Positions 2,584-64,000 of a stretch of DNA of 64,000 nt are shown piece by piece. Location: positions 84,195-148,194 of the forward strand of contig PKTK01000003.1 of assembly GCA_002869165.1 (NCBI GenBank). Reading direction: 5' to 3'. This DNA is from Candidatus Parcubacteria bacterium. Lineage in GTDB: Bacteria; Patescibacteriota; Patescibacteriia; Patescibacteriales; UBA12075. Below the pieces are notes generated by a model that was given only the letters and a program-made list of their open reading frames with translations, did not search any database and was not told the DNA's origin. A program made the position numbers and the translations under genes. Within the stretch, counting starts at the first letter, position 1. Each line of letters opens with the position of its first letter.

Positions 2584-4008
2584 ATGAATTATCAGGATAT
2601 TACAAAGAAAATAAGGGAATATAAATATTGGATATTACTAATTTTTGTTTTTATTTTAGTTAGAATAATTGTTGCAGTTGCTTATTATTTTGCAAATCTT
2701 GATATCGGTGGCTGGAATAACATATATGCTTATACTGACCTTTCTTACAATGTTGTTACAATGAAGCACCTGTTTAAGGCGACTTGTGGAGGCCTGCCAT
2801 TTTATTTCGTGTTTACTTCATTTGTGCAAGCAATATATGATAGTCATTGGTCTGTATATGTAGCGCAAATATTTGCAACTTTTTTTACATTTTATTTTAG
2901 CTATAAATCAATTAGATTGTATTTCTCAAAAAATGTTGCTGTGGCAACTTTGTTGTTGTTGGTGATTGACCCTTTTTATGCTTGGTATAATTTTATGTTT
3001 GCTAGTGGTAACCTTTTTTGTTTGTTTTTTGCTAGTGGTCTTTATAATTTTTTGTTGTTTATTAGAAATAAACAAACAAAAAATCTTGTTTATTTTAGTC
3101 TTTTGATTTCTATTTCTGTTTTAGTAAGAGCTACAGGCATATTATTGATACAAGTTTTTTCAGTTATCTTTATAATATTATTTTTTTATTATAAGTTTTT
3201 TGAAAAAGAAAAAAATTTTTTTGGGGTTAAAACTTTACTGTTATCAATTTTATTTATGAATTTTTGCTATGCTTTATTTGTGGGTGGAGCGGTTATAAAA
3301 AATAAAATTGACTACAATGATTATCGCTTGGCCCCGGACTTAATGACTAATGTTTATTTTTTTAATGTACCAGAGTTATTATCTCTCCAAGAAGGCATCA
3401 GTAATGGTGAGGCAAGAAAAAGACTTACTGATATAGCTAGTCGAGAAATTGATTTTAATATAACTAACATAGGCGATTGCAATAGTATGGGGCAGGAGAA
3501 ATTTAACTTATTTCTTGACTATGTAAATAAAGAAGGGAAGAAATATATTTGGGAGAATTGGTTTGCTTATTCAAAAATTCATTTTTATAAAATGATACCC
3601 TATTATCTGCAATCAGGATATTTTCAGATGTATGAAGGTTATTTTGGTTCAAAGAAAAAACCAAATATTAGCTCTGCAATAATGAATGGTGAGATAAAGG
3701 TGGTATTTGATTTTGTAAAGAAGTTTAATGCACCTGTTGCAATTTATTTCTTTGGTATAGCGTATTGGGGTCTAGCATCTTTTTCAATGTTTTTTACTTT
3801 AATATATTCCTGGTTTAAGGACAGGGAAAAGTTTGTATATATATTAATAATTAATATTTTAACTTTATATTTGGCTTTTACGGTTTCGCCATTTATTATG
3901 CCTAGATACAAGATCATTGCTTATCCTTTTTTCTTGCTATCTTTGATGTATTTTATTAGCATTGTGTTGAATTATATAAAATCACATAAAATAAGAGAAA
4001 AACTATGA
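2584..4008 (+). CDS. polytopic membrane protein, possible GT-C-type (ArnT/PMT-like) glycosyltransferase
   Basis: The 474-aa protein is very hydrophobic, with many predicted TM helices and one larger loop (about aa 245-330). It sits between polyprenyl-P-sugar-type GT2 genes. The family assignment is inference. Confidence 0.6.
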   Translation: MNYQDITKKIREYKYWILLIFVFILVRIIVAVAYYFANLDIGGWNNIYAYTDLSYNVVTMKHLFKATCGGLPFYFVFTSFVQAIYDSHWSVYVAQIFATFFTFYFSYKSIRLYFSKNVAVATLLLLVIDPFYAWYNFMFASGNLFCLFFASGLYNFLLFIRNKQTKNLVYFSLLISISVLVRATGILLIQVFSVIFIILFFYYKFFEKEKNFFGVKTLLLSILFMNFCYALFVGGAVIKNKIDYNDYRLAPDLMTNVYFFNVPELLSLQEGISNGEARKRLTDIASREIDFNITNIGDCNSMGQEKFNLFLDYVNKEGKKYIWENWFAYSKIHFYKMIPYYLQSGYFQMYEGYFGSKKKPNISSAIMNGEIKVVFDFVKKFNAPVAIYFFGIAYWGLASFSMFFTLIYSWFKDREKFVYILIINILTLYLAFTVSPFIMPRYKIIAYPFFLLSLMYFISIVLNYIKSHKIREKL

Positions 4009-4679
4009 AAATTTCTATAGTATTACCAATTTATAATGAAGAAAAAAACATCCCTATTCTTTATCAAGAGTTAAAAGAGGTATTCAATAAAACGGGCTTT
4101 GACTATGAGATAATTGCAGTTAATGATGGATCAAAAGATAAGTCTTGGTTAGAAATGAAAAATATTTCTGAAACTGATAGAAAGTATAAGTTGATAAATT
4201 TTAAATATAATTTTGGTCAGACCTCTGCCTTAGCTGCTGGCATTAAGCTAGCAAGTGGAGATGTAATAATTCCTATGGATTCAGACTTACAAAACGATCC
4301 GGCTGATATCCCAATATTTATAGACAAAATAAACGAAGGCTATGATGTAGTATCCGGTTGGAGACAGAAAAGATGGAAGGGAAACATGTTTTCAAGAAAA
4401 ATCCCGTCTGTTATAGCTAATTGGTTGATCGCTTTTATTACAGGAATAAAAATTCATGATAATGGTTGCACAATGAAAGCTTATAAGAGAGAAATAATTC
4501 AAGGTGTTAACCTATATGGAGAAATGCACAGATTTGTTGCTGCATATGCTTCTTGGAGAGGAGGTAGGGTGATTGAAATCATTGTAAATAGTCGCGAGAG
4601 AAAATACGGAAATACTAATTATGGTATCTCAAGAACATTTAAGGTTTTACTTGACTTAATTGTGTTTAAATTTATGTAA
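4005..4679 (+). CDS. GtrB/ArnC-like GT2 polyprenyl-phosphate glycosyltransferase, catalytic part (ends at in-frame TAA 4677-4679)
   Basis: Motifs ISIVLPIYNEE, AVNDGSKD and PMDSDLQNDP (DXD) are present. The ORF stops at ..LDLIVFKFM*, exactly where family members continue into the juxtamembrane and TM segment. Confidence 0.8.
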   Translation: MKISIVLPIYNEEKNIPILYQELKEVFNKTGFDYEIIAVNDGSKDKSWLEMKNISETDRKYKLINFKYNFGQTSALAAGIKLASGDVIIPMDSDLQNDPADIPIFIDKINEGYDVVSGWRQKRWKGNMFSRKIPSVIANWLIAFITGIKIHDNGCTMKAYKREIIQGVNLYGEMHRFVAAYASWRGGRVIEIIVNSRERKYGNTNYGISRTFKVLLDLIVFKFM

Positions 4680-4685
4680 AAATAT

Positions 4686-4952
4686 ATGAACAGGCCAATG
4701 CATTTTTTTGGTGGCCTGGGCTTTGCATCAATTTTTTTAGGTATTTTGGCAGGCTTAATATCAATCATTTTTAAGATTATTAAATATAAAACCATGATTG
4801 AAACCCCTCTACCAGTTTTGGCTGCTTTGTTTATCATAGTTGGAGTTCAGCTTGTTGTTATGGGAGTTATTGCTGAAATGAATATGCGAATATATTATGA
4901 AGCTCAAAAAAAGAGTCCATATGTAATAGATAAGAAAATTAATTTTGAATAG
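4686..4952 (+). CDS. C-terminal two-TM segment of the same GtrB/ArnC-like GT2 (same frame as 4005-4679)
   Basis: The sequence MNRPMHFFGGLGFASIFLGILAGL.. followed by a second TM helix is the canonical C-terminus of GtrB-type enzymes. It is in the same frame as the upstream piece and only three codons (TAA AAA TAT) separate them. Confidence 0.7.
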   Translation: MNRPMHFFGGLGFASIFLGILAGLISIIFKIIKYKTMIETPLPVLAALFIIVGVQLVVMGVIAEMNMRIYYEAQKKSPYVIDKKINFE

Positions 4953-4953
4953 T

Positions 4954-8979: not shown

Positions 8980-9807
8980 ATGCAAAAAAATATAAACGAC
9001 AAGCCTACTGCTGATGCTTTTGCTGATTCATGGAACAATCTCCCGTTAGGATCCGTGTATGATGAGTACCAATTCAAAGATTTGATTGAACCAATGACGA
9101 AAAAAGATATAGAAGGAAAAAGAGTATTGGAAATGGGGTGTGGAAACGCTAGTTTGATGATGATGATAGCAAATTGGTCCCCAGAGCTATTGGTTGGAGT
9201 TGATTTAGGAGACTCTGTGAAATCTGCAGAGAAGAACATGAAAATGATTTCTTATAAGAATTGGAAAATAGAGCAATCAGATTTAACAGAATATACTTCT
9301 AATGGCTTCGATTTTGTATATTGTATAGGAGTGCTACATCATTTAAAGGATCCAAAAAAAGGATTTGATGCAGTAGTAAGTAATACAAATTCAGGGGGAG
9401 GGTTTCATTGTTGGGTTTATGCTTATGAAGGGAATGCTATTATTCGCTATATTGTAGACCCTATTAGAAAAGTTTCTTGCAAGCTCCCTTGGTGGATTAC
9501 TAAATATTTTATTGCCACCCCTTTGGTTGTCCCATATTATTTTTATGCAAAATTTCTTAAAAGGTTTAACCAAGTTTCATTATTTAAAAAATTGCCTTTA
9601 TATCAATATAGTCAATGGATTGCAAAGAGAGAGTTTTTGTTTTTTAGACATGTTGCGTTCGATCAATTGGTAACACCTCAGACAACTTATATTAAGAAGA
9701 CTACAATCCAGAAGTGGCTTAATGATAATTCTGAAATAAAAAATGATTCAATATATATAATAATGAGAAATGGTAATTCTTGGAAATTTGGGGGAAAGAA
9801 AAAATAA
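8980..9807 (+). CDS. class I SAM-dependent methyltransferase
   Basis: It has the SAM motif VLEMGCGNASL and the downstream segment FDFVYCIGVLHHLKDP. Confidence 0.8.
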   Translation: MQKNINDKPTADAFADSWNNLPLGSVYDEYQFKDLIEPMTKKDIEGKRVLEMGCGNASLMMMIANWSPELLVGVDLGDSVKSAEKNMKMISYKNWKIEQSDLTEYTSNGFDFVYCIGVLHHLKDPKKGFDAVVSNTNSGGGFHCWVYAYEGNAIIRYIVDPIRKVSCKLPWWITKYFIATPLVVPYYFYAKFLKRFNQVSLFKKLPLYQYSQWIAKREFLFFRHVAFDQLVTPQTTYIKKTTIQKWLNDNSEIKNDSIYIIMRNGNSWKFGGKKK

Positions 9808-9809
9808 TT

Positions 9810-10547
9810 ATGAAACTATTATTATTTAATTATGAATATCCACCTTTGGGAGGAGGGGCAGGAAATTCAACAATGAGTATTGCAAAAGCTTATTCAAAAC
9901 TTGGGCACGATGTTTTGGTGGTTACGACTTGGTTCGAGGGATTACCAGAAGAAGATATGGCAAATAATATGAAGGTGCTTAGAGTAAAGTCTAGAAGAAA
10001 GAGGAAGGATAGATCTAATCCGTTGGAGATGTTGGATTATGTGGGAAAAACAAAAAAACTGAAAAATATTATAAAACAATTTAACCCTGATTTTTCAATT
10101 GGTTTTATGGCTTTACCGTCTGGATTATCATCATATTATTATTTTAAGACTCAAAATATTCCTTATATTATTTCAGTACAAGGAGGTGATGTTCCAGGAT
10201 TTTTGCCAGATATTAAGAGCCTTAGAATTTTCCAGTATTTATCAATGCCTTTAACAAAAAAAATATGGAAGAATTCGATTAAAGTAGTGGCTAATAGTAG
10301 AGGTCTTATGCAATTAGCTCAGAAAACGGGTGATAAAATTAATATTAAAACAAATTTTTATCCAAATGGTATTGATTTGAATTTTTTTAAACCAATAGAT
10401 AAAAAAAATGAAATAGTGAAGATACTTTTTGTTGGTAGATTCTACTCTCAAAAAGGATTGAACTATTTATTGGAATCTATAAATATTTTAAAAGAAAGTA
10501 AATTAAGTAAAAAGTTTTGTCTTGAGTTGGTGGGCGATGGACCATAA
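9810..10547 (+). CDS. glycosyltransferase family 4, N-terminal part (ends at in-frame TAA 10545-10547)
   Basis: MKLLLFNYEYPPLGGGAGN is a typical GT4 start. The ORF stops inside the Glycos_transf_1 domain at ..KILFVGRFYSQKGLNYL..LELVGDGP*. The ATG at 9810 immediately follows the upstream stop. Confidence 0.8.
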   Translation: MKLLLFNYEYPPLGGGAGNSTMSIAKAYSKLGHDVLVVTTWFEGLPEEDMANNMKVLRVKSRRKRKDRSNPLEMLDYVGKTKKLKNIIKQFNPDFSIGFMALPSGLSSYYYFKTQNIPYIISVQGGDVPGFLPDIKSLRIFQYLSMPLTKKIWKNSIKVVANSRGLMQLAQKTGDKINIKTNFYPNGIDLNFFKPIDKKNEIVKILFVGRFYSQKGLNYLLESINILKESKLSKKFCLELVGDGP

Positions 10548-10553
10548 AAATCA

Positions 10554-10961
10554 ATGATACTATCAATGGTTGATAAGTATAAATTACATGATTATGTAAA
10601 AATAATTCCCTGGTGTAATAAAGAAGATCTACTTAAAAAATATCAAAATGCTGACTTGTTTGTATTATCTTCTCACGAAGAAGGGATGCCAAATGTAATT
10701 TCTGAAGCAATGGCTTGTGGTTTGCCCATAGTTTCTACTAGGGTTAGGGGGAGTGAGGAATTGGTAAAAGATGGAGAAAATGGTTATTTGATAGAACCAA
10801 AAAACAGTGAACAACTGGCAGATAAGATTCAGAAACTTATTGAAGATGATGCGCTTAGAAATAATTTTTCAAAAAAAAGTTTAGAAATAATTTCTAATTA
10901 TAGCTGGGAAAATGTAGCTAATTATTATATAGAAGTATTTAAAAATAATAAAAATAAATGA
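10554..10961 (+). CDS. glycosyltransferase family 4, C-terminal part (same frame as 9810-10547)
   Basis: It contains the remainder of the GT4 donor-binding domain: LFVLSSHEEGMPNVISEAMACGLPIVSTRVRGSEELV. It is in the same frame as the upstream piece, separated by TAA AAA TCA. Confidence 0.75.
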   Translation: MILSMVDKYKLHDYVKIIPWCNKEDLLKKYQNADLFVLSSHEEGMPNVISEAMACGLPIVSTRVRGSEELVKDGENGYLIEPKNSEQLADKIQKLIEDDALRNNFSKKSLEIISNYSWENVANYYIEVFKNNKNK

Positions 10962-15733: not shown

Positions 15734-17026
15734 ATGAAAATAATTGATAGAGAAAGATTTATAATCAAGGAGTATTGGCTGGCGATTGTTATAGCTATGG
15801 TAGTTGCTTTTATTTATTTTGCGCCATATTTTTTGTCTTTATTTGAGAATGAGTATAAAGGTGTTTTGTTTACTTCGCTTGATTCAGAAGTGCACTACCT
15901 TGCAAGACTTAATGAGATATCAGAGGGGTATTGGAATTATGCAAGCACTTATTTGTATGAATACAAAGATAGTAGCACGGTTGTAAATCAATATTCAGAT
16001 GTATTGTATGGTTTGATTGTTGGTCTATTGGGCATATCGGTTGTTTCTTTTTATTTGTTTGCAAAGATATTTTTTGCTTTTTTGAATTATCTTTTGTGGT
16101 ATTTTTTAAGTTATTTGTTGTCGAATAATAAAAAATTTTCAATTCTTACTGCACTTTTTGTAACGATTGGATATACAGTAAAAGAAAATATTAATATAAC
16201 AGATCAAATAAATATTTTATTTTGGAAAGGAGATGTTTCTAATTTTCTAGTTTTTAGTAGGATTGTTAATCCTTTTGTAGTTCATCCGTTTTTTATAATC
16301 TCTATAATACTGTTGTTTCTGTTTTTTAAAAAGAATCAACTTAAATATTCAATATGGTTTGGCGTGTTGCTCGGACTAAATTATTATTTGTTTTTTTATT
16401 CATGGGTGTATTTGCTGGTTGTTGCATTTTTGTTAATTCTGTATTTTGTGATATATAAAAAGTTTGATGAGGTGAAAAAATTAGCTTGTGGACTTTTCTT
16501 GTCGTTTGTTTTGGGGGTGTATTATTTCTATATGATGTTCAAGTTGGCTTTTTTTAGTTTTGCTGAGGACGCAACCGCTGGCGCTTTGTCATTATTTGAG
16601 AGCACTCATGAAATAATATTGTCAAAGTATGTTTTTTTTATTTTTTTGATATTTCTTGTATATTTGATTTATAAAAAAGTGAGAATAAAAGATGTTAGTA
16701 CTTCAGATATTTTTTTATTATTATTAATATCAGGTTCAATCATTGTTGTAAATCAACAAGTATTAACCGGAATGTTGGTTGAGGAAGGGCATTTTCATTG
16801 GTATATAAATACTCCAATTACATCAATAGTATTAGCTTATTTAATTTATTATACTTCTTCTTTTTTTAAGAAAAAATCACTAAATATTTTTGTTTTTTCT
16901 TTATTTTTAATTTATTTTATCTTTTTTGGTCTTGGTTATCAGCTTTCAGCTTATGGTAATGTGAAAGAAGAGTTTATTAAAAAACAAAGATATGCTGAAT
17001 TTTATGAATGGTTGAATAAAAACTAA
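15734..17026 (+). CDS. polytopic membrane protein, GT-C-like (ends at in-frame TAA 17024-17026)
   Basis: The 430-aa protein is highly hydrophobic and ends ..YAEFYEWLNKN*. A same-frame ORF follows after four codons. Confidence 0.65.
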   Translation: MKIIDRERFIIKEYWLAIVIAMVVAFIYFAPYFLSLFENEYKGVLFTSLDSEVHYLARLNEISEGYWNYASTYLYEYKDSSTVVNQYSDVLYGLIVGLLGISVVSFYLFAKIFFAFLNYLLWYFLSYLLSNNKKFSILTALFVTIGYTVKENINITDQINILFWKGDVSNFLVFSRIVNPFVVHPFFIISIILLFLFFKKNQLKYSIWFGVLLGLNYYLFFYSWVYLLVVAFLLILYFVIYKKFDEVKKLACGLFLSFVLGVYYFYMMFKLAFFSFAEDATAGALSLFESTHEIILSKYVFFIFLIFLVYLIYKKVRIKDVSTSDIFLLLLISGSIIVVNQQVLTGMLVEEGHFHWYINTPITSIVLAYLIYYTSSFFKKKSLNIFVFSLFLIYFIFFGLGYQLSAYGNVKEEFIKKQRYAEFYEWLNKN

Positions 17027-17038
17027 GACTTTGACTCA

Positions 17039-17482
17039 GTGGTGATGACTAATGGGAGTATATCTAATTCTGTGCCGGCATATACTCATAATAATGTTTA
17101 TTTCTCTGAATATATAAAACACTATAGTTCTACTCCTTTTGAAAGAAGAGTAAATGCTTTTTATGTAAATTATATTTTAGAGAAAGGTGAAATTAATTGT
17201 GATAATCTGGATTATAGTGCTAGTGATAAATTAATGAAAGATTGGGTGTATTTTAAATATCTTAGAGGGAGAGGAACAGAGGTTCCAGTTGAAATAAAAG
17301 ATGCGGTTTTTGGAGGATGTCAAAATTATGACAATAGAGATTTTTATGATATATTAAACGAATATCGTTTGGATTATATATTGTGGGACAAGGATTTAAA
17401 TCCAGGTTGGGAAATTGATAAATACGATTTTGTAGAAGAAATATATAATAAAAATAATATTTTTTTATATAAAATTATATGA
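17039..17482 (+). CDS. soluble C-terminal domain probably belonging to the 15734-17026 membrane protein (same frame)
   Basis: It has a GTG start in the track and is in the same frame as the upstream ORF. Its composition and position match the hydrophilic C-terminal domain of the paralogous-architecture protein at 7056-8969. The link between the two pieces is inference. Confidence 0.55.
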   Translation: MVMTNGSISNSVPAYTHNNVYFSEYIKHYSSTPFERRVNAFYVNYILEKGEINCDNLDYSASDKLMKDWVYFKYLRGRGTEVPVEIKDAVFGGCQNYDNRDFYDILNEYRLDYILWDKDLNPGWEIDKYDFVEEIYNKNNIFLYKII

Positions 17483-18183
17483 AAATATTAGGTTTGTCAT
17501 GTTTTTACCACGACAGTGCTGCCTGCTTGATAGTGGATGGTGAGATTAGAGCTGCAGCACACGAGGAACGTTTTACGCGGATAAAGCATGATTCACAATT
17601 TCCAAAGAAGGCTATAGAGTATTGCCTAGATGAAGAAAGCTTGGATATCAATGAGCTTGATTTGATTGTGTTTTATGACAAGCCATTTTTGAAATTTGAA
17701 AGACTTTTAGAAACATATTTAGCTTATGTGCCCAAAGGATTAAAGTCTTATTTAAAGGCTATGGAAGCCTGGTTGAAGCAAAAGCTATGGATACCGAGTA
17801 TTATTGAGGGCGAAACAGGCTATAAAGGAAAAATTATATATTCTGAACATCATCTTTCTCATGCTGCTTCATCATTTTTTCCATCTCCATTTGACAGGGC
17901 TGCTTTTTTGACTGTTGACGGTGTAGGTGAATGGGCAACAACTTCATATGGAATTGGAAATGGGAATAAAATAGAGATGAAGAAAGAAATATTGTTTCCT
18001 CATTCTTTGGGCTTGCTTTATTCAGCTTTTACTTATTACACAGGTTTTAAGGTTAATTCTGGAGAGTATAAATTAATGGGATTGGCTCCATACGGTGAAG
18101 CTAAGTATAAAGATTTGATTTATAAAAATTTGATAGACTTGAAAGACGACGGATCTTTCAGATTGAATATGGATTATTTTTAA
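17479..18183 (+). CDS. carbamoyltransferase (NodU/CmcH/SxtI family), N-terminal part (ends at in-frame TAA 18181-18183)
   Basis: MKILGLSCFYHDSAACLIVDGEI..HEERFTRIKHD.. is a typical family N-terminus. The ORF stops at ..FRLNMDYF*, in the middle of the conserved linker. Confidence 0.85.
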   Translation: MKILGLSCFYHDSAACLIVDGEIRAAAHEERFTRIKHDSQFPKKAIEYCLDEESLDINELDLIVFYDKPFLKFERLLETYLAYVPKGLKSYLKAMEAWLKQKLWIPSIIEGETGYKGKIIYSEHHLSHAASSFFPSPFDRAAFLTVDGVGEWATTSYGIGNGNKIEMKKEILFPHSLGLLYSAFTYYTGFKVNSGEYKLMGLAPYGEAKYKDLIYKNLIDLKDDGSFRLNMDYF

Positions 18184-18201
18184 TATCCGGCAGGACTTAG
18201 A

Positions 18202-19296
18202 ATGACGAATAAAAAGTTCCATGATCTTTTTGGCGGTGAACCAAGAAGACCAGAATCAGAGATTACGCAAAAGGAAATGGATATTGCAAAATCTATTCAA
18301 GAGGTTACAGAGGAAATAATGCTCGAGCTTGTAAAAAATATTCATAAAGTAACTGGCGAGAAATATTTGTGTTTGGCTGGGGGTGTGGCATTGAATTGTG
18401 TATCTAATAGGCGACTTTTGGAAGAAGGACCTTTTGAAGATATTTGGATACAGCCAGCATCCGGTGATGCGGGAGGAGCCTTGGGAGCTGCTTTGGTTGG
18501 TCACTATTTATATGCAGAGGGAGATAGACCAGAACTAAGAAATAAAAAGGACAGACAAAAGGGCTCTTATTTAGGCCCAGAGTTTAGTGCTAAGGAAATT
18601 AAAAAAGTTCTTGATAAGAATAAGGCCAAATATAGAAAAATTGAGAGTGATGTCGAGCTTTATTCACAAGTTGCAGATTTTCTAGCAGGTGAAAAAGTTG
18701 TTGGCTGGTTCCAGGGTCGTATGGAATATGGGCCAAGGGCGCTTGGAAATAGGTCAATCATTGGAGATGCTAGATCTGCAAAGATGCAGAAACAGATGAA
18801 TTTGAAAATAAAGTTTCGTGAAGGTTTTAGACCTTTTGCACCGTCAGTTCTTGAAGAGCAGGTCGCTAAGATATTTAAAACTGAACATGATTCGCCCTAT
18901 ATGCTTTTAACCTCTGAGGTTAGAGATGAGATAAAAAAACCCCTTGACCAAGAACTAAAAGGACTTGATAAGCTTAATCATGTTAGATCAAGTGTACCAG
19001 CGATTACTCATGTGGATTATTCAGCTAGACTTCAAACAGTTTCAAGTGATGGGGGCAATAAACGATATCATGATTTGATAAGTAAATTTTTTGAAAAAAC
19101 CGGCAGCCCTGTTATAATAAATACATCTTTTAATGTGCGTGGTGAGCCGATTGTTTGTAGTCCAGAGGATGCATATCTTTGTTTTATGAGAACTGATATG
19201 GATTATTTGGTGATGGGAAATTTTGTTTTAAATAAAATTGATCAGCCAAAACTAGAAAATGATGAGGACTGGCGAAGTAAATACGTACTTGATTAA
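18202..19296 (+). CDS. carbamoyltransferase, C-terminal part (same frame as 17479-18183)
   Basis: The frame continues YPAGLRMTNKKFHDLFGGEPRRPE.., then LAGGVALNCV, GPRALGNRSI and INTSFNVRGEPIV, which are family motifs. The combined length of about 600 aa equals a normal enzyme. Confidence 0.85.
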   Translation: MTNKKFHDLFGGEPRRPESEITQKEMDIAKSIQEVTEEIMLELVKNIHKVTGEKYLCLAGGVALNCVSNRRLLEEGPFEDIWIQPASGDAGGALGAALVGHYLYAEGDRPELRNKKDRQKGSYLGPEFSAKEIKKVLDKNKAKYRKIESDVELYSQVADFLAGEKVVGWFQGRMEYGPRALGNRSIIGDARSAKMQKQMNLKIKFREGFRPFAPSVLEEQVAKIFKTEHDSPYMLLTSEVRDEIKKPLDQELKGLDKLNHVRSSVPAITHVDYSARLQTVSSDGGNKRYHDLISKFFEKTGSPVIINTSFNVRGEPIVCSPEDAYLCFMRTDMDYLVMGNFVLNKIDQPKLENDEDWRSKYVLD

Positions 19297-19297
19297 T

Positions 19298-20509
19298 ATG
19301 AAAAATTTTTTAAAAAATTCAATTTTAGTTTTGGTAAGTATTATTTTTTCTTTGGTTTTAGCTGAGCTTGTGATTAGGTGGATGGAGCCTGAAAAAACTG
19401 TCGGAAATGATATTTTGGCATATATTGGAACGCCCGGAGGAGATATTGACGAAAGAGGTTTTCGAAACAATGAAGCCTTGGAACAAGCAAGTATCGTAGT
19501 GATAGGTGACTCGCAAACATATGGTAACAACGCCAGTCTGGAAGAGGCCTGGCCACAGGTCTATGCTGGTTTAGTGGAGGAAAAGATGTATCAAATGGCA
19601 TACGGTGGATATGGACCGATTCAATATCGATATCTTTTTGATAAAGCGCAAGAACTTGAGCCTAAAAAAATAATAGTTGCTATGTATTTGGGTAATGATT
19701 TTTATGATGCTTACAACATGGCTTGTAATAAAGATTATTGGAAAAACTATTGCGGAGTAGGTGAATTGGAAAACAATGTAAGCCAGGAATCAAAAAATGT
19801 AAGAATGATGATTTTGTATGGGTATGATGATGATTCTATTCAAATGAAGATTTTAAAATTAAGACAATTGATAAGAAAACATAGCAGACTGTATGGACTT
19901 CTTGGTAATGCCTCAAGGTCACTGAGGGAGAAACTTGGTTTAGCTCAGAAAAAAGAAGAAGTAGCTAACAGAGTCAATGACTGGGCAGAAAACAATGATG
20001 AAGCAATTCTTTTTAAATATAATGACAGCTCTACAATTTTGAGTCCTGAGTATAGACTTGGTGCAGTCAGTCTTGATGATCCAAAAACAGCAGAAGGTTT
20101 TGAAGTGTTCAAAAAGACCTTTGCTGAAATGAATGATTTAGCAACTGAAAAAAATATAGAATTTGAAGTGGTGATAATACCAACCAAAGAGATTATATAT
20201 TATAATTATTCCAAGCAGACTGAAGGCACTGACTTGAGTGGGTTAGATGCATATATCTTAAAAGAGGAGGAATTGCTTAGAAATGTGGAAGGATTTTTTG
20301 ATGAAGATGGCATAGAATATCATTTGGTATTAAGTGATATGGTAAAAGCCCTTGAAGATGGAGGGGTTTTGTATAACAAAGGGATAGATGGTCATCCGAA
20401 TTCTGCAGGGTATGAAGTAATTGCCCAAAGTGTATATAATTTTGAGCAAACCAAAAATATTGAAACGGAAACAGCTACAACTAGTTTAGAAAAAATATTA
20501 GAAGAATAA
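19298..20509 (+). CDS. SGNH/GDSL-family hydrolase or acyl-esterase with N-terminal membrane anchor
   Basis: An N-terminal TM helix is followed by VVIGDSQTYG (GDS block I) and a C-terminal DGHPNSAGY (DxxH block V). The ATG at 19298 lies right after the upstream stop. Confidence 0.7.
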   Translation: MKNFLKNSILVLVSIIFSLVLAELVIRWMEPEKTVGNDILAYIGTPGGDIDERGFRNNEALEQASIVVIGDSQTYGNNASLEEAWPQVYAGLVEEKMYQMAYGGYGPIQYRYLFDKAQELEPKKIIVAMYLGNDFYDAYNMACNKDYWKNYCGVGELENNVSQESKNVRMMILYGYDDDSIQMKILKLRQLIRKHSRLYGLLGNASRSLREKLGLAQKKEEVANRVNDWAENNDEAILFKYNDSSTILSPEYRLGAVSLDDPKTAEGFEVFKKTFAEMNDLATEKNIEFEVVIIPTKEIIYYNYSKQTEGTDLSGLDAYILKEEELLRNVEGFFDEDGIEYHLVLSDMVKALEDGGVLYNKGIDGHPNSAGYEVIAQSVYNFEQTKNIETETATTSLEKILEE

Positions 20510-20513
20510 AAAA

Positions 20514-20930
20514 ATGAGTGAAATAATAAAAAAAATTAAAGCATTAGATTGTAAGAGCAAAGAATTTGTAAGTTTTTCAGTTTTGTTTATAGTAATTGTT
20601 ATATCAATAGTTCTTTTTTTTGATTTTAGTTTAAAAACGGAAAGAATTCTATTGATTCTTGGTATTTATTTTGCGCTTGGTATAGTTATACCAGTATTAA
20701 CAAAATATCTTTTTTATTTATGGATGTTTATTTCCTTTTCGTTAAGTAAAATAATGTTTACTTTGCTTTTTTCTGTCTTTTATTGCATACTTATAATACC
20801 AATCGGAGTTTTAAAAAAAATTAGCAAAGGTGACTTTTTGGAAAAAGGCTACAACAAAGAACTGAAAAGTTATTGGAAGGATTTCGATGCTAATAGAATA
20901 AATAAAGAATCATTGGAAAAATTATATTAA
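20514..20930 (+). CDS. SxtJ-family small membrane protein
   Basis: The 138-aa protein has 3-4 TM helices and a C-terminal ..LKKISKGDFLEKGYNKELKSYWKD.. segment that resembles the SxtJ pattern. It is adjacent to a carbamoyltransferase and a DUF5989-like gene. Confidence 0.6.
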   Translation: MSEIIKKIKALDCKSKEFVSFSVLFIVIVISIVLFFDFSLKTERILLILGIYFALGIVIPVLTKYLFYLWMFISFSLSKIMFTLLFSVFYCILIIPIGVLKKISKGDFLEKGYNKELKSYWKDFDANRINKESLEKLY

Positions 20931-20941
20931 ATTTATAAAAT

Positions 20942-21100
20942 ATGGGAAAATTAAAAATTTTAGTACAATTTTTTGAGTTTTTGAAAGTTAGGAAAAAATA
21001 TTGGCTTTTGCCAGTTGTTTTGGTTTTTGCTACGATTGGCTTATTACTGGTAGTTTCAGAAGGAAGCGTAGTAGCTCCATTTATATATACTTTGTTTTAG
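20942..21100 (+). CDS. DUF5989 / SxtK-like small membrane protein (52 aa, below the ORF-track cutoff)
   Basis: I translated this by hand as MGKLKILVQFFEFLKVRKKYWLLPVVLVFATIGLLLVVSEGSVVAPFIYTLF*. The pattern ..FLKVRKK.WL.P.. and the C-terminal APFIYTLF are the hallmarks of this family as I recall it. Confidence 0.7.
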   Translation: MGKLKILVQFFEFLKVRKKYWLLPVVLVFATIGLLLVVSEGSVVAPFIYTLF

Positions 21101-25275: not shown

Positions 25276-26361
25276 ATGAAAATAAACTTCATAACTGTTA
25301 GCAATCATTTAACAGGAGGCAATAGAGTTATCATGGAGCTTGTAAATGGTTTAGCGCGAAAAGGACACGAGCTAAACATAGTAACATTGGGAAATAAAGA
25401 TGATTTAAATTGGATAAATATTGAGGCAAATATTATAGAGGTGAAGAGAAATTTTTTTCAGAAAATTGTCGGATATGGATACAGAAAGGCTTTTGGCTTT
25501 CAGTCATGGCCAGAGGAGCAAACCAGAATGTTAATAAAAAATATGCCCGAAGCCGATGTAAGTATTGCGACTATGTCATATACAGGATTTTCTGTTGCAA
25601 GACAAAACAAATCTCTGCCTTTTCAACTTCATATGCATTATGAGCCATATGTAAGAGGTGAGGGCTATACTCACAAAGTAATGAAAGAATGCTATCATTT
25701 ACCAGTTAACATTATTGCAAATAGTACATGGGTAAAAAATACTATAAAAAAAGAAAATAATAAGGAGTGTGTAGGGGTTGTTTGTCCTGCTATAGACCAT
25801 AATGTTTTTTATAAAAGGAAAGAATTTAAACCAATTAATAAAAATAATGTTAAAATTGTTTCACTGTCTAAACATAAAATTTGGAAAGGTATACCCGAGG
25901 CATTAAAAACTATTAAAATTTTAAGAGATAGGGGTTATAATATAGAATTTAAAACATTTGGTGGCGACTTTCCTAGCGATAAATTAAGTAATGAATTAAA
26001 AGATGTTATTTATAGTTATGAGGGAAGAAAAGAGAATGATGAGTTGGCAAAATTTTATTCTGAAGCAGATATTTTAATATCTTCATCATATTATGAGAGT
26101 TTTCCTTTGCCACAGTTAGAGGCTATGGCATGTGGCACCCCTGTGGTAACTACTAAATATGGCACAGAAGATTATGCGTACAATAACGAAAATTGTTATG
26201 TGGTTGAACCAAAAAATCCTGAAATGATGGCAATGGCTATTGAAAAGTTAATAAACTCTCCAGAGATATATAAAAAGTTTAGCGAAAGAGGAGTTGAGAC
26301 GGCAAAAAAATTTACATGGGATAAATCAGTAGATTTATTAGAGAGTATTTTATTAAAGTAA
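25276..26361 (+). CDS. glycosyltransferase family 4
   Basis: It has the motif YYESFPLPQLEAMACGTPVVTTKYGTEDY (EX7E region) and is 361 aa long. Confidence 0.85.
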   Translation: MKINFITVSNHLTGGNRVIMELVNGLARKGHELNIVTLGNKDDLNWINIEANIIEVKRNFFQKIVGYGYRKAFGFQSWPEEQTRMLIKNMPEADVSIATMSYTGFSVARQNKSLPFQLHMHYEPYVRGEGYTHKVMKECYHLPVNIIANSTWVKNTIKKENNKECVGVVCPAIDHNVFYKRKEFKPINKNNVKIVSLSKHKIWKGIPEALKTIKILRDRGYNIEFKTFGGDFPSDKLSNELKDVIYSYEGRKENDELAKFYSEADILISSSYYESFPLPQLEAMACGTPVVTTKYGTEDYAYNNENCYVVEPKNPEMMAMAIEKLINSPEIYKKFSERGVETAKKFTWDKSVDLLESILLK

Positions 26362-26368
26362 TTAAAAA

Positions 26369-27253
26369 ATGAAAAAATTGATTAGTGTAATAATGCCAAC
26401 ATATAATCGATCAGATTTGGTAGGGGTGTCTATTAAGTCTGTTTTAAGTCAAACTTATCGTGATTTTGAATTGATTGTTGTTGATGATGGGATTGAAGAG
26501 CGAGCAGAAAAAGTTGTGAAGTCATTCAATGATGATAGGATTAGATATATTCAACATGAGAAAAGCAAAGGAGGGGGAGCTGCTCGAAATACTGGTATAA
26601 AAAATGCCAAGGGAGAATTCGTGGCATTTTTGGATGACGATGATGAATGGGCACAAAATAAATTAGAGATACAAGTGAGGCAGTTTGAAAAAACAGATGA
26701 TAGTATTGGTTTTAGTTTTACAGCTGTTGAGAATATTACTGACACAGGTAGTTTTTGTACAAATGTTCCTGATGGTGTTCAAGATTTTCATGAAAGAGCT
26801 CTTAAGCGTTTTTCTGGGTTTTTGACAGTTACATTGATGATCAAAAAACAAGTTTTTGAAGAAGTTGGTGTCTTTGATGAGATATTCCCCAGTAATCAAG
26901 AGCCAGATTTAATGATAAGGGTAACGAAGGAGTATAAGGGTTTGGGTATAAACAAACCTCTTAGCTTTGTTAACATGAAAGAACATGAACATATAAATAG
27001 TAATTGGGATAATAGAATTAATGGAAGAAAGATGATATTTGAGAAATATCAGGATGATTTTAATAAATATCCAAAATATTTAGCGAAACATTATTTTGAT
27101 CTTGCTTTAATGTGTAGAGATGTTAAGTATTTCAAAGAAGCAAAAAAATATTTTGTTAAAGCAATAAAAATTAATTTTAAATTATTATATATAGCGCATT
27201 ATTTTAATGTATTAGTGAAGAGTTTCTTGCTTTTTGGTGATACGAAGAATTAG
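26369..27253 (+). CDS. glycosyltransferase family 2
   Basis: It has ISVIMPTYNRSDLV, ELIVVDDG and AFLDDDDEW (DXD). Confidence 0.85.
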   Translation: MKKLISVIMPTYNRSDLVGVSIKSVLSQTYRDFELIVVDDGIEERAEKVVKSFNDDRIRYIQHEKSKGGGAARNTGIKNAKGEFVAFLDDDDEWAQNKLEIQVRQFEKTDDSIGFSFTAVENITDTGSFCTNVPDGVQDFHERALKRFSGFLTVTLMIKKQVFEEVGVFDEIFPSNQEPDLMIRVTKEYKGLGINKPLSFVNMKEHEHINSNWDNRINGRKMIFEKYQDDFNKYPKYLAKHYFDLALMCRDVKYFKEAKKYFVKAIKINFKLLYIAHYFNVLVKSFLLFGDTKN

Positions 27254-28521: not shown

Positions 28522-28549
28522 AAAAGACAGTATTTAGATACTGTCTTTT
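28522..28549. terminator. intrinsic terminator hairpin at the convergent gene junction
   Basis: AAAAGACAGTAT-TTAG-ATACTGTCTTTT is followed by a T-run (28551-28558) on the + strand. The stop and last codons of the minus-strand gene 28534-29649 lie inside the hairpin. Confidence 0.7.
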
Positions 28550-29649: not shown

Positions 29650-29655
29650 GCGTGA

Positions 29656-45828: not shown

Positions 45829-47916
45829 ATGGAAGGAAATTTTATTTCAAAGTTATTTGAACCTAGCGCCAGGGCAAAAGTTTGGCGGATTTTTATTTTT
45901 ATAATAGTTATTTTTGTTATTTCAGGTAGTATCGCTGGTGGATCCTATTTGAATAAAGGTGTTGATTATCTAAAAAACAAAACTGGAATAAGTATTAATT
46001 TGCCGGGACTACCCGAAATTCCTTTTAAGTTGGGATTGGATTTACTTGGTGGAACCCATTTGGTTTATACAGCTGATATGAGTGAAATTGATAATGCCGA
46101 CAGGGCTAGCGCCTTGGAAGGTGTTCGAGATGTGATTGAGCGAAGAGTAAATGTTTTTGGTGTGTCAGAGCCCTTGGTGCAAACCAACATTTCAGGTGGA
46201 GATTATCGAATTATTGTTGAATTAGCAGGTATCCAAGATGTAGCGGAAGCAGTAAAAATGATTGGAGAAACTCCTTTGCTTGAATTCAAGGAAGAAGATA
46301 CAGCACAAAGAGAGTTAACAGAAGAAGAGAGGAAAATAATGGATGATTTCAACACAGAGTCATTGACCAAAGTTACCGAGGTAATTGCCAAGGTTGTGGC
46401 CGGAGAAGATTTTGCCACCTTGGCTAAAACTTATAGTGATGATGATAATACCAAGGATAATGGTGGGGAACTAGGTTGGATTACAGCTAATGATTATCCA
46501 CAGGTGGCTGGTGAGGTAGAAAACTATGAGGTTGGTGATACTAGTAAAGAATATATAGTTGCAGAAAATGGTTATGAGATTTTTAAGCTTAATGACAAAA
46601 GAGTAAAAACAAACCCATTTGACGAAACTCAAAAAGAAACAGAGGTCAAAGCCTCTCATCTTTTGCTTTGTCATAATGAGATTGAAGGCTGTGAATCAGG
46701 TTTAAGTAAGGAAGATGCGTTGGCAAAAATTAAGGAAATTGAAACAGAAGCAACGCCTAATAATTTTACAGATTTGGTAAAAGAATATTCAACTGAACCA
46801 GGTGCAAGTGAAACAGGGGGTGAGCTTGGTTGGTTTGATAGAAATACTATGGTCGAACCTTTTACAGTGACTGTATTTGATAATCAGGAAGTGGGAACTA
46901 TCTCATATATTGTTGAAACTCAGTTTGGTTACCATTTAATTTATAAGGAAGACGAAAGAGATATTATTGAATATAATGTTTCACATATTTATGTAGCAAC
47001 AATCTCGGAAGCTGATATTATCGCAAATGATTCTAGAAATTGGAAGTTAACTGAATTAACTGGAAAGTATTTGGATCGAGCCAGTCTTTCATTTAATCCA
47101 AATGATAATTCAGCTGAGGTATCTCTTGAGTTTGATTCTGAAGGATCTGATCTATTTGCAGATATTACAGGTAGGAATATAGGTAAGCCAGTTGCAATAT
47201 TTTTGGACGGACAGCCTATTAGTATCCCCACAGTAAATGGGCAAATTTTCGGTGGCAGAGCTGTGATTTCAGGCGATTTTAGCATTGATGATGCAAAATT
47301 ATTGGCTCAAAGGTTAAATGCTGGTGCCTTACCTGTACCAATTGAGATTGTTAGCCAGCAAACAGTTGGAGCAACCCTTGGACATGTTTCTCTTCAAGCT
47401 AGTCTAAAAGCTGGTATTATTGGTCTTATTTTGGTTGCATTATTTATGATCTTATATTATCGTTTGCCTGGAATTTTTGCAGTCGTGGCATTGATGTTTT
47501 ATGGAGTAGTGATTTTGGCAATGTTTAAAATATTTTCCGTTACTTTGACATTGTCAGGGTTAGCTGGTTTGATCTTGTCTATTGGTATGGCGGTGGACGC
47601 AAATGTTTTAATTTTTGAAAGATTGAAAGAGGAGTTGGCTAGCGGAAAGCCAAGTGGAATTGCTATCAGAGACGCTTTTGAGCGAGCTTGGACTTCAATC
47701 CGTGATGGAAATGTCTCTACTATTATAACTTGTGTTATTTTATATATTTTTACTACTTCAATGGTAAGAGGTTTTGCAATTACTCTTGGCTTAGGTGTTA
47801 TAGTGTCAATGTTCTGTGCAATTTTTGTTACTAGAAATCTTTTGCAATTAGTAATTTCAGATAAAATATCAAAAAACACATGGCTACTTGCATATAAAAA
47901 AACAATTAATGATTAG
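45829..47916 (+). CDS. secD: protein translocase subunit SecD with inserted parvulin-type PPIase domains
   Basis: The SecD N-terminal TM helix and P1 base (LGLDLLGGTHLVY, ERRVNVFGVSEP, IIVELAG) are present, as is the C-terminal six-TM SecD core. Between ..PLLEFKEED and the rest of the P1 head there are about 220 aa. This segment includes a canonical parvulin domain (KASHLLL..LVKEYSTEPGASETGGELGWF..TQFGYHLIY) and a degenerate one (DFATLAKTYSDD..NGGELGWI). Confidence 0.9.
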   Translation: MEGNFISKLFEPSARAKVWRIFIFIIVIFVISGSIAGGSYLNKGVDYLKNKTGISINLPGLPEIPFKLGLDLLGGTHLVYTADMSEIDNADRASALEGVRDVIERRVNVFGVSEPLVQTNISGGDYRIIVELAGIQDVAEAVKMIGETPLLEFKEEDTAQRELTEEERKIMDDFNTESLTKVTEVIAKVVAGEDFATLAKTYSDDDNTKDNGGELGWITANDYPQVAGEVENYEVGDTSKEYIVAENGYEIFKLNDKRVKTNPFDETQKETEVKASHLLLCHNEIEGCESGLSKEDALAKIKEIETEATPNNFTDLVKEYSTEPGASETGGELGWFDRNTMVEPFTVTVFDNQEVGTISYIVETQFGYHLIYKEDERDIIEYNVSHIYVATISEADIIANDSRNWKLTELTGKYLDRASLSFNPNDNSAEVSLEFDSEGSDLFADITGRNIGKPVAIFLDGQPISIPTVNGQIFGGRAVISGDFSIDDAKLLAQRLNAGALPVPIEIVSQQTVGATLGHVSLQASLKAGIIGLILVALFMILYYRLPGIFAVVALMFYGVVILAMFKIFSVTLTLSGLAGLILSIGMAVDANVLIFERLKEELASGKPSGIAIRDAFERAWTSIRDGNVSTIITCVILYIFTTSMVRGFAITLGLGVIVSMFCAIFVTRNLLQLVISDKISKNTWLLAYKKTIND

Positions 47917-55612: not shown

Positions 55613-56416
55613 ATGGATATGAAAAGTGCAAAAGTAATAGTTGGAGCATTTATCAAAAACGATAAAGATGAATTATTGCTTTTAAAATCTGAAAAAGGAA
55701 ATAATAAGTATACTTGTCCTAGTGGTCATGTTGAATTCAATGAAAAGCTTGAAGACGCACTAAAAAGAGAAGTAAAAAAAGAAACAGGCTTAAAGATTCA
55801 TGATATTGAGTTTCTCGGTATCGGTGAAGCAGTGAAGAAGGGCAAGGAATTTAAAAAAAATGAAGAGCATCACGTATATATAAATTACTCTGCTAGAGTA
55901 AAAAATGATAAAGTTAAGCATAGCGATGAATCAAGTGGATACAAATGGCTAAAGATCGAAGAATGGAAAAAAAGAGACGATATAGGAGTAGATGTCGTTG
56001 ATATTTTGGATAAATTGAGTGCAGATACTTATGAAAATATGTATAAGAGAGCTCTGGCTGATTATCAAAATCTTTTAAAACAAAACGCCAAAGAAAAACA
56101 AGATTTAGTTAAATATGCCAACGAACAATTTTTGTATGAGTTATTACCGGTTTACGACAATCTAAAAGTTTCTTTGCTTCATATAAATGAAAGTAGCGAT
56201 GTCAATGCTTGGGCAGAAGGAATAAAGTATGTAGTTAAACAATTTTCTCAAGTTTTGGAAGGGATTGGTGTCGAGGAAATAAAGACAATTGGTGAGAAAT
56301 TTAATCACGAAACAATGGAGGCGATGAAAGGCAGAGGGGAGATTGTTAAAAAGGAAGTAAGGCCAGGCTACAAATTAAATGGCAAAGTAATAATTGCCGC
56401 TAAAGTTGAACTATAA
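55613..56416 (+). CDS. grpE: Nudix hydrolase domain fused to GrpE nucleotide-exchange factor core
   Basis: Residues 1 to about 135 carry a Nudix box, GHVEFNEKLEDALKREVKKETGL (GX5EX7REVxKExGL). Residues from about 140 to 267 carry the GrpE pattern: YKRALADYQNLLKQNAKEKQDLVKYANEQFLYELLPVYDNL.., a four-helix bundle and a beta domain ending ..YKLNGKVIIAAKVEL. It is a single uninterrupted ORF. Confidence 0.85.
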   Translation: MDMKSAKVIVGAFIKNDKDELLLLKSEKGNNKYTCPSGHVEFNEKLEDALKREVKKETGLKIHDIEFLGIGEAVKKGKEFKKNEEHHVYINYSARVKNDKVKHSDESSGYKWLKIEEWKKRDDIGVDVVDILDKLSADTYENMYKRALADYQNLLKQNAKEKQDLVKYANEQFLYELLPVYDNLKVSLLHINESSDVNAWAEGIKYVVKQFSQVLEGIGVEEIKTIGEKFNHETMEAMKGRGEIVKKEVRPGYKLNGKVIIAAKVEL

Positions 56417-57013: not shown

Positions 57014-57904
57014 ATGGGCAGTTTAAACATTTCAGTCAACAAAGAGGAAGAGTCAAAAAAACCTGCCAAAAAAAGAGGTAGACCAAGAAAAGCTACTATA
57101 AAAACAGTCGCCAAAAGTGCTGAGATTAAGACTAGTGTAGCTGAAGCTCGCAAGAAATCAAAGACGGTTGATAAACAAAAAGATTCAAAAAAGAATCCCA
57201 AAAAAGAGAGAAATATTTTGACTACTATTATTTCAGCGGTCGTTGTTTCTTTGATAGTCGGGGGAGTGATTTATGCTTGGAAGACTGATGAAGGAAAAAA
57301 GAAGATTGATCAATTAAGAAGCGATGCCAAAGCTGTTAGAGTTGGTTTTGAACAAGATATTGATAGATTGAAGAATAAGCTAACTGGCATAGAAACAGAA
57401 AATGAAGAATTAAAAAATACCACCAAAGAACTTGAAGAACAGGTTAAGTTATTAAATGGGGCAAAAAAGGATTTTGTAGATCCTGAATTGGGAATTAGCT
57501 TTGACTATCCTGCGACCTTTGGTGATGTAGTTCTTGAAATGGTAGATGGCAAAACTGGTAAGAAATTCAAAGGCACATTTTCCAAAAATGAAAAATTAGT
57601 TTTTGGGGGAGTGAGTAGTGATTATGAGCCAATGGCGACCACTACTATCGTTGAATTTTTAGAAACTCAAGGTTTTTATGAGAGAAGAGATAATTACTAT
57701 TTTATTGGTATTGGGGAAGACAGAGAATCTGAGGATATAGAAATGATTCCAAGTAAAGGAATTGAATATGATGATAATGTTGCCTTAATCATCTACAAGA
57801 ACAGTTTTGTTCTTGATGAGGGCGCTGATGGTTTACCAGTAAATATTGGTGAAAATATTGGCGCACTAGTTAATCTAGAAGGTGATAATTTCTTTGGTCT
57901 GTGA
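57014..57904 (+). CDS. hypothetical membrane-anchored protein with N-terminal AT-hook-like basic tail and coiled coil
   Basis: KKPAKKRGRPRKA contains the RGRP core. A single TM helix (ILTTIISAVVVSLIVGGVIYAW) follows, then a coiled coil (..IDRLKNKLTGIETENEELKNTTKELEEQVKLL) and a C-terminal domain of about 150 aa. Confidence 0.6.
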   Translation: MGSLNISVNKEEESKKPAKKRGRPRKATIKTVAKSAEIKTSVAEARKKSKTVDKQKDSKKNPKKERNILTTIISAVVVSLIVGGVIYAWKTDEGKKKIDQLRSDAKAVRVGFEQDIDRLKNKLTGIETENEELKNTTKELEEQVKLLNGAKKDFVDPELGISFDYPATFGDVVLEMVDGKTGKKFKGTFSKNEKLVFGGVSSDYEPMATTTIVEFLETQGFYERRDNYYFIGIGEDRESEDIEMIPSKGIEYDDNVALIIYKNSFVLDEGADGLPVNIGENIGALVNLEGDNFFGL

Positions 57905-58020
57905 TTTCTTGATCAAGATTTGGGAATATTACCAATGGATTCATTTGAAAAAATATTAAAAAGTATAAAAGTAACTAAACAATAAGTTATTTACACAAAT
58001 AATTAATTTAATAAAATATT

Positions 58021-59925: not shown

Positions 59926-59942
59926 ATTAAAATAAATTCTTA

Positions 59943-60326: not shown

Positions 60327-60617
60327 ATGACAAATCAAAATAATCAACCACAAAAAAAGGAAATTAAAATCGCTGACAATATTCCCGGAGCAGAATACTC
60401 AAATGCCATGCAGGTAAATCATAATAAAGATGAATTTCAACTTGTGTTTTTAAATATTTTTGGTGGTTCTGGAAGAGTTGCCGGAAAGATTGTTACTAGC
60501 CCAGGTCATTACAAAAGAATGATTATGGCCATGCAGGATAATCTGAATAAATACGAAGACAACTTTGGTGAAATAAAAGAAGCTAGTGCTCCGGAGAAGG
60601 AGATTGGATTTAAATAA
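60327..60617 (+). CDS. DUF3467-family protein
   Basis: The sequence from ATG 60327 (MTNQNNQPQKKEIKI..YSNAMQVNHNKDEFQLVFLNI..GKIVTSPGHYKRMIMAMQDNLNKYEDNFGEI) resembles the DUF3467 pattern as I recall it. The track start at 60258 is a GTG with a poor N-terminus. Confidence 0.6.
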   Translation: MTNQNNQPQKKEIKIADNIPGAEYSNAMQVNHNKDEFQLVFLNIFGGSGRVAGKIVTSPGHYKRMIMAMQDNLNKYEDNFGEIKEASAPEKEIGFK

Positions 60618-60717
60618 TTATTGCAAAATAATAAATTCACAAATACTAATTAAAACAGAATGTGAATAATAGATTTTTTGTGAATTTGTGCTTTGATTTA
60701 GTGAATTTGTAATTCAT

Positions 60718-61803: not shown

Positions 61804-61825
61804 TTTTGTTAATTAAAAATATCGC

Positions 61826-62944: not shown

Positions 62945-62970
62945 TTTGGCTAATATTAAAATTAAAATAT

Positions 62971-63003
62971 AAAAAAATAACTAAGTTTGCTAGTTATTTT
63001 TTT
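62971..63003. terminator. intrinsic terminator after htrA (A-run/hairpin/T-run, potentially bidirectional)
   Basis: AAAAAA-ATAACTA-AGTTTGC-TAGTTAT-TTTTTTT. Confidence 0.65.
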
Positions 63004-63036
63004 AAAGTTAGCGATTTTTTTATCCACAATTATTAC

Positions 63037-63090
63037 TTGAAAAATATTCACTTAGTATTATAATAGAAGATATGATATTATAATACTAAG
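63037..63090 (+). promoter_or_regulatory. promoter-like hexamers overlapped by a 14-bp perfect inverted repeat (candidate operator) upstream of the ABC ATPase gene
   Basis: TTGAAA (63037-63042), a 16-nt spacer, then TATAAT (63059-63064). The inverted repeat is CTTAGTATTATAAT (63051-63064) and ATTATAATACTAAG (63077-63090), separated by 12 nt. Confidence 0.45.
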
Positions 63091-63145
63091 GGGGATAGCT
63101 AGGTAGCTATTCTTTTTCGTTTTTATATAAATTAAAATTGTAAAT

Positions 63146-63721
63146 ATGATCGAGATTAAAAATTTATCAAAACGATTTGCTTCCACAGCAGTATTGGAAG
63201 ATTTGAATTTGGAGGTAAAAAAAGGAGAAATCCTTGGTTTTTTAGGTCCGAATGGAGCTGGAAAAACCACTACCATGAAAATAATCACTAGTTTTTGGGC
63301 TCCCAGCGGCGGTAGTGTTAAGGTAGATGGTATTGATGTAACAGAGGATTCACAAAAGAGCCGAGCCAAAATTGGTTATTTACCAGAAACTGTCCCGCTA
63401 TACGAAGATATGAGAGTTTATGAATATTTGAAGTTTATTGCTGAAGTTAGAGGAATAGAAAAAGACAGAATCAAAAAGAGAATAAAAGAAGTTGCACATG
63501 ATTGCGGTTTATCTTCAGTTATTAGAAAGCCTATTGATGAATTGTCAAAGGGATATAGACAAAGAGTAGGTCTAGCTCAAGCAATAATGCACGAACCCGA
63601 AATTCTTATTTTGGATGAACCAACTACAGGACTTGATCCAAATCAAATTTCTGAAATCAGAGAACTTATTAAAAAAATCGGAAAGGAAAAAACGGTTATT
63701 TTTTCAACCCATATTTTGTAA
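63146..63721 (+). CDS. ABC transporter ATP-binding protein (ABC-2/GldA-like), ends at in-frame TAA 63719-63721
   Basis: It has Walker A GPNGAGKTT, the Q-loop region, the signature LSKGYRQR, Walker B ILILDEPTTGLD and the H-loop FSTHIL, followed by TAA. Confidence 0.88.
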   Translation: MIEIKNLSKRFASTAVLEDLNLEVKKGEILGFLGPNGAGKTTTMKIITSFWAPSGGSVKVDGIDVTEDSQKSRAKIGYLPETVPLYEDMRVYEYLKFIAEVRGIEKDRIKKRIKEVAHDCGLSSVIRKPIDELSKGYRQRVGLAQAIMHEPEILILDEPTTGLDPNQISEIRELIKKIGKEKTVIFSTHIL

Positions 63722-64000
63722 GAAGTAGAGGCAACTTGCGATAGAGCAATTATTATCAACAAAGGAAAGATTGTTGTTGAGGGAACTCCTTCAGAACTAG
63801 CCAGAAAGGCCGGAGGCAAGGAAAAGATTTATGTGAAGATTAAGGGTCCAAAGGAAAAGGTTTTGGAGGCTTTGAAAAATCTTGATGAGATAGTTAAGAT
63901 CGAAGAAAAAGACAAAGAAAGTGATGAGATTTTTGGTTATAGCATAGAAGCAAAAGAAGGAATAGACGTAAGAGAAAAACTTTCAACAACTCTAATGAAT
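63722..64000 (+). CDS. continuation of the ABC ATPase reading frame after the in-frame TAA (partial, runs off the window)
   Basis: The same frame translates without a stop to position 64000. It reads EVEATCDRAIIINKGKIVVEGTPSELARKAG.., the expected post-H-loop sequence, and then a C-terminal regulatory-like domain. There is no nearby start codon. Confidence 0.6.

Follow-up and report, generated by a model that had tools for sequence, protein, structure and literature searches.

The stretch of DNA analysed here (hereafter the window) comprises 64,000 nucleotides of PKTK01000003.1 (positions 84,195 to 148,194 of the forward strand), a 156,199-bp contig deposited at NCBI as 'MAG: Candidatus Parcubacteria bacterium' (MAG, metagenome-assembled genome), with proteins PLX27402 onward and locus tags C0583_037xx. 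Its G+C content is 32.7% and its GC skew is strongly positive. We deal here with the premature in-frame stop codons that interrupt seven of its 55 genes, roughly one in eight, and that correspond to sense codons in other assemblies of the same population. The genes and their stops are listed below, where 'private' denotes a base by which the window differs from the other assemblies and lengths are given in amino acids (aa).

4005..4952, + strand: glycosyltransferase family 2 (GT2, GtrB-like) gene, 315 aa if intact
4677..4679, + strand: TAA in the GT2 gene; elsewhere TCA (Ser225); private C>A at 4678
9780..10961, + strand: glycosyltransferase family 4 (GT4) gene, called as 383-393 aa if intact
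10545..10547, + strand: TAA in the GT4 gene; elsewhere GAA (Glu256 of the 393-aa call); private G>T at 10545
15734..17482, + strand: membrane protein gene, no Pfam family, 582 aa if intact
17024..17026, + strand: TAA in the membrane protein gene; elsewhere TCA (Ser431); private C>A at 17025
17479..19296, + strand: carbamoyltransferase gene (Carbam_trans_N + Carbam_trans_C), 605 aa if intact
18181..18183, + strand: TAA in the carbamoyltransferase gene; elsewhere GAA (Glu235); private G>T at 18181
25276..26385, + strand: second GT4 gene, 369 aa if intact
26359..26361, + strand: TAA in the second GT4 gene, leaving 361 aa with the last 8 residues lost; elsewhere TCA (Ser362); private C>A at 26360
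57014..57985, + strand: hypothetical protein gene, 323 aa if intact
57902..57904, + strand: TGA in the hypothetical protein gene, leaving 296 aa with 27 residues lost; elsewhere GGA (Gly297); private G>T at 57902
63146..64000, + strand, extending beyond the window end: ABC transporter ATPase gene, 309 aa if intact
63719..63721, + strand: TAA in the ABC ATPase gene, directly after the H-loop; TCA in the JGI assembly (Ser192 of 309 aa); private C>A at 63720

Five of these stops, the forward-strand TAA codons at 4677-4679, 10545-10547, 17024-17026, 18181-18183 and 63719-63721, had been described in an earlier note on this DNA as a pattern of five conserved genes, each interrupted by a single TAA beyond which homology resumes in the same frame. 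All five codons are present, and at each of them the two halves of the gene do share one frame. The continuation of homology is likewise real, in that Pfam scans of the joined products place Glycos_transf_1 (residues 194-356) across the stop in the GT4 gene at 9780..10961 and Carbam_trans_N (residues 2-339) across that in the carbamoyltransferase. What did not stand is the restriction to five genes and to TAA: the TAA at 26359-26361 and the TGA at 57902-57904 had been missed, and the stops number seven, six TAA and one TGA. Four of them derive from TCA>TAA (4678, 17025, 26360 and 63720), two from GAA>TAA (10545 and 18181) and one from GGA>TGA (57902). A single consistent amino acid at the stop positions, which the note had proposed to look for, did not emerge from the comparison with other assemblies, the residues beneath the stops being Ser four times, Glu twice and Gly once. 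The nucleotides that follow the five stops first described (AAA TAT, AAA TCA, GAC TTT, TAT CCA and GAA GTT) share no context. The 54 genuine terminators of the corrected gene set comprise 36 TAA, 11 TGA and 7 TAG codons, in agreement with the earlier exclusion of a global reassignment of TAA.

The window was compared with three other assemblies of the same population, namely the Logan assembly of run SRR5894289 (contig SRR5894289_164, 79,456 bp), JGI/IMG metagenome 3300007102 (contig Ga0102541_1098923, 80,527 bp) and ENA assembly ERZ794999 (NODE_42, 164,046 bp, coverage 23). Short contigs of the same organism, with a coverage of 2.3-2.7, also occur in ERZ794998, a sister ENA assembly; two of them are referred to below as L001 and L010. 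The reference for the base comparison consisted of five loci (L012, L007, L009, L011 and L008) that jointly span the window's full 64,000 bases. The comparison rests throughout on assembled consensus sequences and protein sets.

The interrupted genes are whole in these assemblies. The Logan contig encodes the GT2 (315 aa), the GT4 (393 aa), the membrane protein (582 aa) and the carbamoyltransferase (605 aa) as uninterrupted proteins, the same four are uninterrupted in the 23x ENA contig, and the JGI contig carries an uninterrupted ABC ATPase of 309 aa. A homology search with the joined carbamoyltransferase retrieved a 605-aa protein (P0001) on NODE_6329 of the sister assembly ERZ794998, which differs from the joined product only by a Glu at the stop position and by one other residue. 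Contig L001 of this sister assembly covers two of the five stop sites first described and has a sense codon at both. Consensus or assembly error, or strain heterogeneity, was one of the three options between which the earlier note had not chosen, and it is the one that agrees with the finding of a sense codon at every stop in other assemblies of the population.

The stops are part of a larger set of differences. Over the 64,000 bp, the window departs from the other assemblies by 43 substitutions and by no insertion or deletion (indel), which bears out the earlier statement that frameshifts are absent. The private substitutions, as located in the base comparison, are the following.

Substitutions 1-22: 4678, 6200, 7603, 8459, 9083, 9714, 10545, 11067, 11199, 14140, 14465, 15005, 15013, 16276, 16903, 17025, 18181, 22641, 26360, 27040, 29748, 32792
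Substitutions 23-43: 33769, 34176, 35242, 35392, 37057, 38450, 39027, 41075, 41569, 43396, 44232, 49370, 51425, 53911, 54614, 54918, 56898, 57794, 57902, 58702, 63720

Twenty-one of these are C>A, 18 are G>T, two are G>A, one is T>G and one is A>C. C>A and G>T thus account for 39 of the 43, the window always being on the A/T side, and the ratio of transitions to transversions is 2:41. Natural strain variation shows the opposite balance between the two classes. The changes are evenly distributed along the window (Kolmogorov-Smirnov p = 0.37).

The other assemblies agree with one another and not with the window. The Logan, JGI and ENA ERZ794999 sequences are mutually identical wherever they overlap; over 20,961 bp, the 23x ENA contig matches the Logan/JGI sequence at 100.000% identity, and the same 17 sites differ from the window. 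L001 and L010 side with the other assemblies at all seven window-private sites that they overlap. These two low-coverage contigs also carry 15 private substitutions of their own, ten of which are G>T or C>A, and this type of error therefore recurs in the data of this project. The private G>T changes of L010 at 3587-4702 include a broken gene (237 + 120 aa versus 371 aa), and those of L001 (1021-1028 and 1604) include three clustered within 8 bases.

The same division is seen at the protein level. In exact-sequence look-ups, the unchanged proteins of the window are common to NCBI, JGI, Logan and ENA. For all eight variant proteins looked up (P0244, P0250, P0257, P0261, P0263, P0266, P0269 and P0271) the window version occurs in NCBI only, and JGI, Logan and ENA agree on another version; these variants were found nowhere else in a collection of 15 billion proteins that includes Logan assemblies of public runs. 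Exact look-ups returned no match for the carbamoyltransferase fragment in its truncated form or for the SecA open reading frame of 933 aa; the window versions differ from all other assemblies or start elsewhere. With the N-terminal half of the GT4 protein as query, genome and metagenome contigs yielded only distant relatives at identities of 24-42% and a single match of 25 residues at 76%; the GTDB representatives searched do not include the organism.

G>T and C>A changes result from the pairing of adenine opposite 8-oxoguanine (8-oxoG), and oxidation occurs most readily at the 5' guanine of a GG or GA step. When the 39 changes are read on the strand that carries the guanine, the changed G precedes A 21 times, G 15 times, C three times and T never (chi-square p = 3e-5), a purine hence occupying the 3' position in 36 of 39; the base on the 5' side is mostly T. 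The 3'-purine context is consistent with guanine oxidation, and a review describes guanine as favoured 3' of 8-oxoG (PMC6974700). Oxidation of DNA during the shearing and preparation of libraries has been shown to yield C>A/G>T artefacts with a peak at CCG>CAG (Costello et al. 2013, PMC3616734).

The coding consequences of the 39 changes are those of random placement. Seven are nonsense, 20 missense, eight synonymous and four intergenic. Under a flat-rate null, in which C>A/G>T changes fall at random over all C and G sites, 4.3 nonsense changes are expected (P(>=7) = 0.13). After the 3'-purine preference had emerged this null was replaced by context-aware ones, which predict 6.5-7.9 nonsense changes against the seven observed. 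The nonsense count matches the random expectation, and therefore selection has not filtered the changes. The share of TAA among new stops expected under the C>A/G>T model is 55-63% (six of seven were observed), in line with the caution expressed earlier that five TAA out of five are not in themselves decisive. The seven stops, six of them TAA, are the product of unselected C>A/G>T changes given this codon usage. Alignments to PDB structures place the missense changes G100V of ProRS and Q228K of DnaK at variable or ambiguously aligned positions, and are uninformative on invariant residues.

We consider it probable (about 85%) that the stops are private consensus errors of the deposited MAG contig and not features of the organism's genes. 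Judged from the compared sequences, they would reflect neither readthrough nor recoding. Directly observed are the confinement of the changes to one record, their spectrum, their sequence context and a number of stops that matches random placement. Damage of the guanine-oxidation type, or corresponding miscalls, most likely arose in the sequencing data or the pipeline of the submitter, and the resulting read errors would then have been carried into the consensus of the submitter's assembly, possibly by way of a different, damaged or low-input library, or through consensus building or polishing with low-coverage reads. In AT-rich coding sequence, G>T and C>A turn GAA and TCA into TAA and GGA into TGA, and scattered errors therefore give mostly TAA stops in otherwise intact genes. 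Membership in the class of oxidative C>A/G>T artefacts, judged from consensus sequences, is supported, not proven.

Several observations weigh against this reading. The 3' base is A as often as G and the 5' base is mostly T, with no peak at CCG>CAG of the kind described for library oxidation (PMC3616734). A contig of 156 kb implies good coverage, at which random read errors should not enter the consensus. Synonymous and intergenic changes together number 12, versus about 6.5 expected (chi-square p 0.04-0.10), and guanines on the minus strand are changed about twice as often per site, at 18 of 3516 sites where the G is followed by a purine (GR) compared with 18 of 7569 on the plus strand (p 0.03-0.045). 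The strand excess could be due to chance, to finer context or to a process in vivo, and together with the synonymous/intergenic excess it could hint at a biological process.

Such a process is the core of the rival that survives best, namely that the MAG derives from a clonal sub-lineage lacking repair of 8-oxoG (the GO system, MutY/MutM/MutT), in which the stops would be genuine and very recent pseudogenisations that appeared too fast for selection. The spectrum and context suit 8-oxoG mutagenesis in vivo as well as damage in vitro, so long a contig speaks for these alleles having been well covered in the data of the submitter, and the genes for SecA, DnaK, ProRS, PBP2 and MreB, all of them core housekeeping genes, contain none of the seven stops; synonymous and intergenic changes are mildly in excess and the strand asymmetry is roughly twofold, both of which point the same way. 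Against it, the alleles appear in none of the three other assemblies, and the sister sample lacks them at seven of seven sites, and the variant proteins have no other occurrence in the 15-billion-protein collection. Only four differences are not of the oxidative type, so that the source is otherwise the same clone, and nonsense changes are not depleted (seven versus 6.5-7.9 expected). The recurrence of the same private error type in the low-coverage sister contigs suggests moreover a failure mode of the data. We regard this explanation as unlikely, and a real oxidative hypermutator subclone as much less likely than consensus errors. That the MAG faithfully represents a real sub-lineage devoid of 8-oxoG repair, caught in an unselected burst of G:C>T:A change, seems to us improbable too; if true, it would amount to a natural oxidative hypermutator in a symbiont of the candidate phyla radiation, with about 0.6-0.7 changes per kb, roughly one in six of them a new stop. 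An origin of the private consensus errors in vitro or in silico, and not in a living subclone, is what we infer as most likely.

Recent nonsense pseudogenisation was another option of the earlier note, and the rival considered under this head is ordinary decay, in which a symbiont with a reduced genome would have fixed its nonsense pseudogenes throughout the species. TAA is indeed the stop most easily created in AT-rich genomes, and the affected genes include several dispensable ones for glycosylation. Against this stand the prevalence of C>A or G>T (39 of 43), the lack of any indel in 64 kb and the near absence of transitions (2:41); the changes are shared by no other assembly, and the genes are intact in the Logan, JGI and ENA contigs. 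We consider fixed decay very improbable. The remaining proposal, that site-specific readthrough of TAA or a suppressor tRNA lets the interrupted genes be fully translated, draws on the resumption of homology right after the stop in five conserved genes and is hardly credible, since the stops are not reproduced in other assemblies of the population, they stand in place of three amino acids (Ser, Glu and Gly) rather than one, one stop is TGA, no common nucleotide context lies downstream of the stops, neither the window nor 20 kb of its flanks (loci L007-L011) yielded a tRNA, the window gave no Rfam match, and the same process also gave 20 missense, eight synonymous and four intergenic changes. 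The interpretation offered earlier is in this way partly supported, through one of the three options that it had left side by side.

If the stops are private consensus errors, a public MAG record carries about 0.6-0.7 errors of the G>T type per kb, a load that would be enough to mimic the recoding of stop codons or the decay of a genome. Scans for alternative genetic codes, counts of pseudogenes and metabolic reconstructions that use this record would be misled, and perhaps also those that use sister MAGs of the same submission. A signal of an alternative code should be compared first against another assembly of the same data, and a quick screen can be taken from the spectrum itself (transversions only, C>A/G>T, no indels). 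The pattern is a quality flag for the MAG record, not a biological feature of interest.

Other features of the window are described here in their own right. The first half of the window, together with 7 kb upstream in L012, forms a dense glycan-modification cluster that contains GT2, GT4, radical SAM/SPASM and asparagine synthase genes, sulfotransferases and many methyltransferases. Downstream of the carbamoyltransferase gene, within 17479-21000, lie a 416-aa and a 138-aa gene, both of unknown function, and a DUF5989 gene of 52 aa. Minus-strand genes occur solely at 28534-32676 and 36286-37656, all others being on the plus strand. At 28-32 kb the GC skew, about 0.3 before, dips to 0.07, coinciding with the minus-strand block at 28534-32676; elsewhere it is strongly positive. 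According to precomputed Pfam annotation, the SecD product (695 aa, 45829-47916; L011) has rotamase domains (PpiC-type peptidyl-prolyl isomerase) between SecD_1st and the P1 head, and the GrpE product (267 aa, 55613-56416; identical gene in L008/L011) has a NUDIX hydrolase domain ahead of the GrpE domain, an unusual fusion.

Set beside known systems, the changes in the window differ from ordinary pseudogenes, which show a mixed spectrum with indels and transitions and are found population-wide, in having no indels and a ratio of 2:41 and in being private to one record. With the reassignment or readthrough of stop codons (genetic codes 4 and 25, and the TAG or TGA recoding of phages) they share the continuation of homology past in-frame stops. 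Recoded stops are reproducible and involve one stop type, one amino acid and a matching change in a tRNA or release factor, whereas those of the window are not reproducible and comprise two stop types and three amino acids, with no tRNA in the window or its flanks. Hypermutators of the GO system (mutY/mutM/mutT) are closer, as they are likewise dominated by G:C>T:A and build up nonsense and missense changes with little selective filtering, but the alleles seen here are unique to one record. The oxidative artefact described by Costello et al. (2013) has in published cases a low allele fraction among reads and its peak at CCG>CAG, whereas the changes in the window are part of a deposited consensus. 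In other respects this artefact resembles what is seen here: both consist almost solely of C>A/G>T, do not recur when the same population is sequenced independently and fall without regard to coding consequence; the guanines changed in the window favour a 3' purine, G among them.

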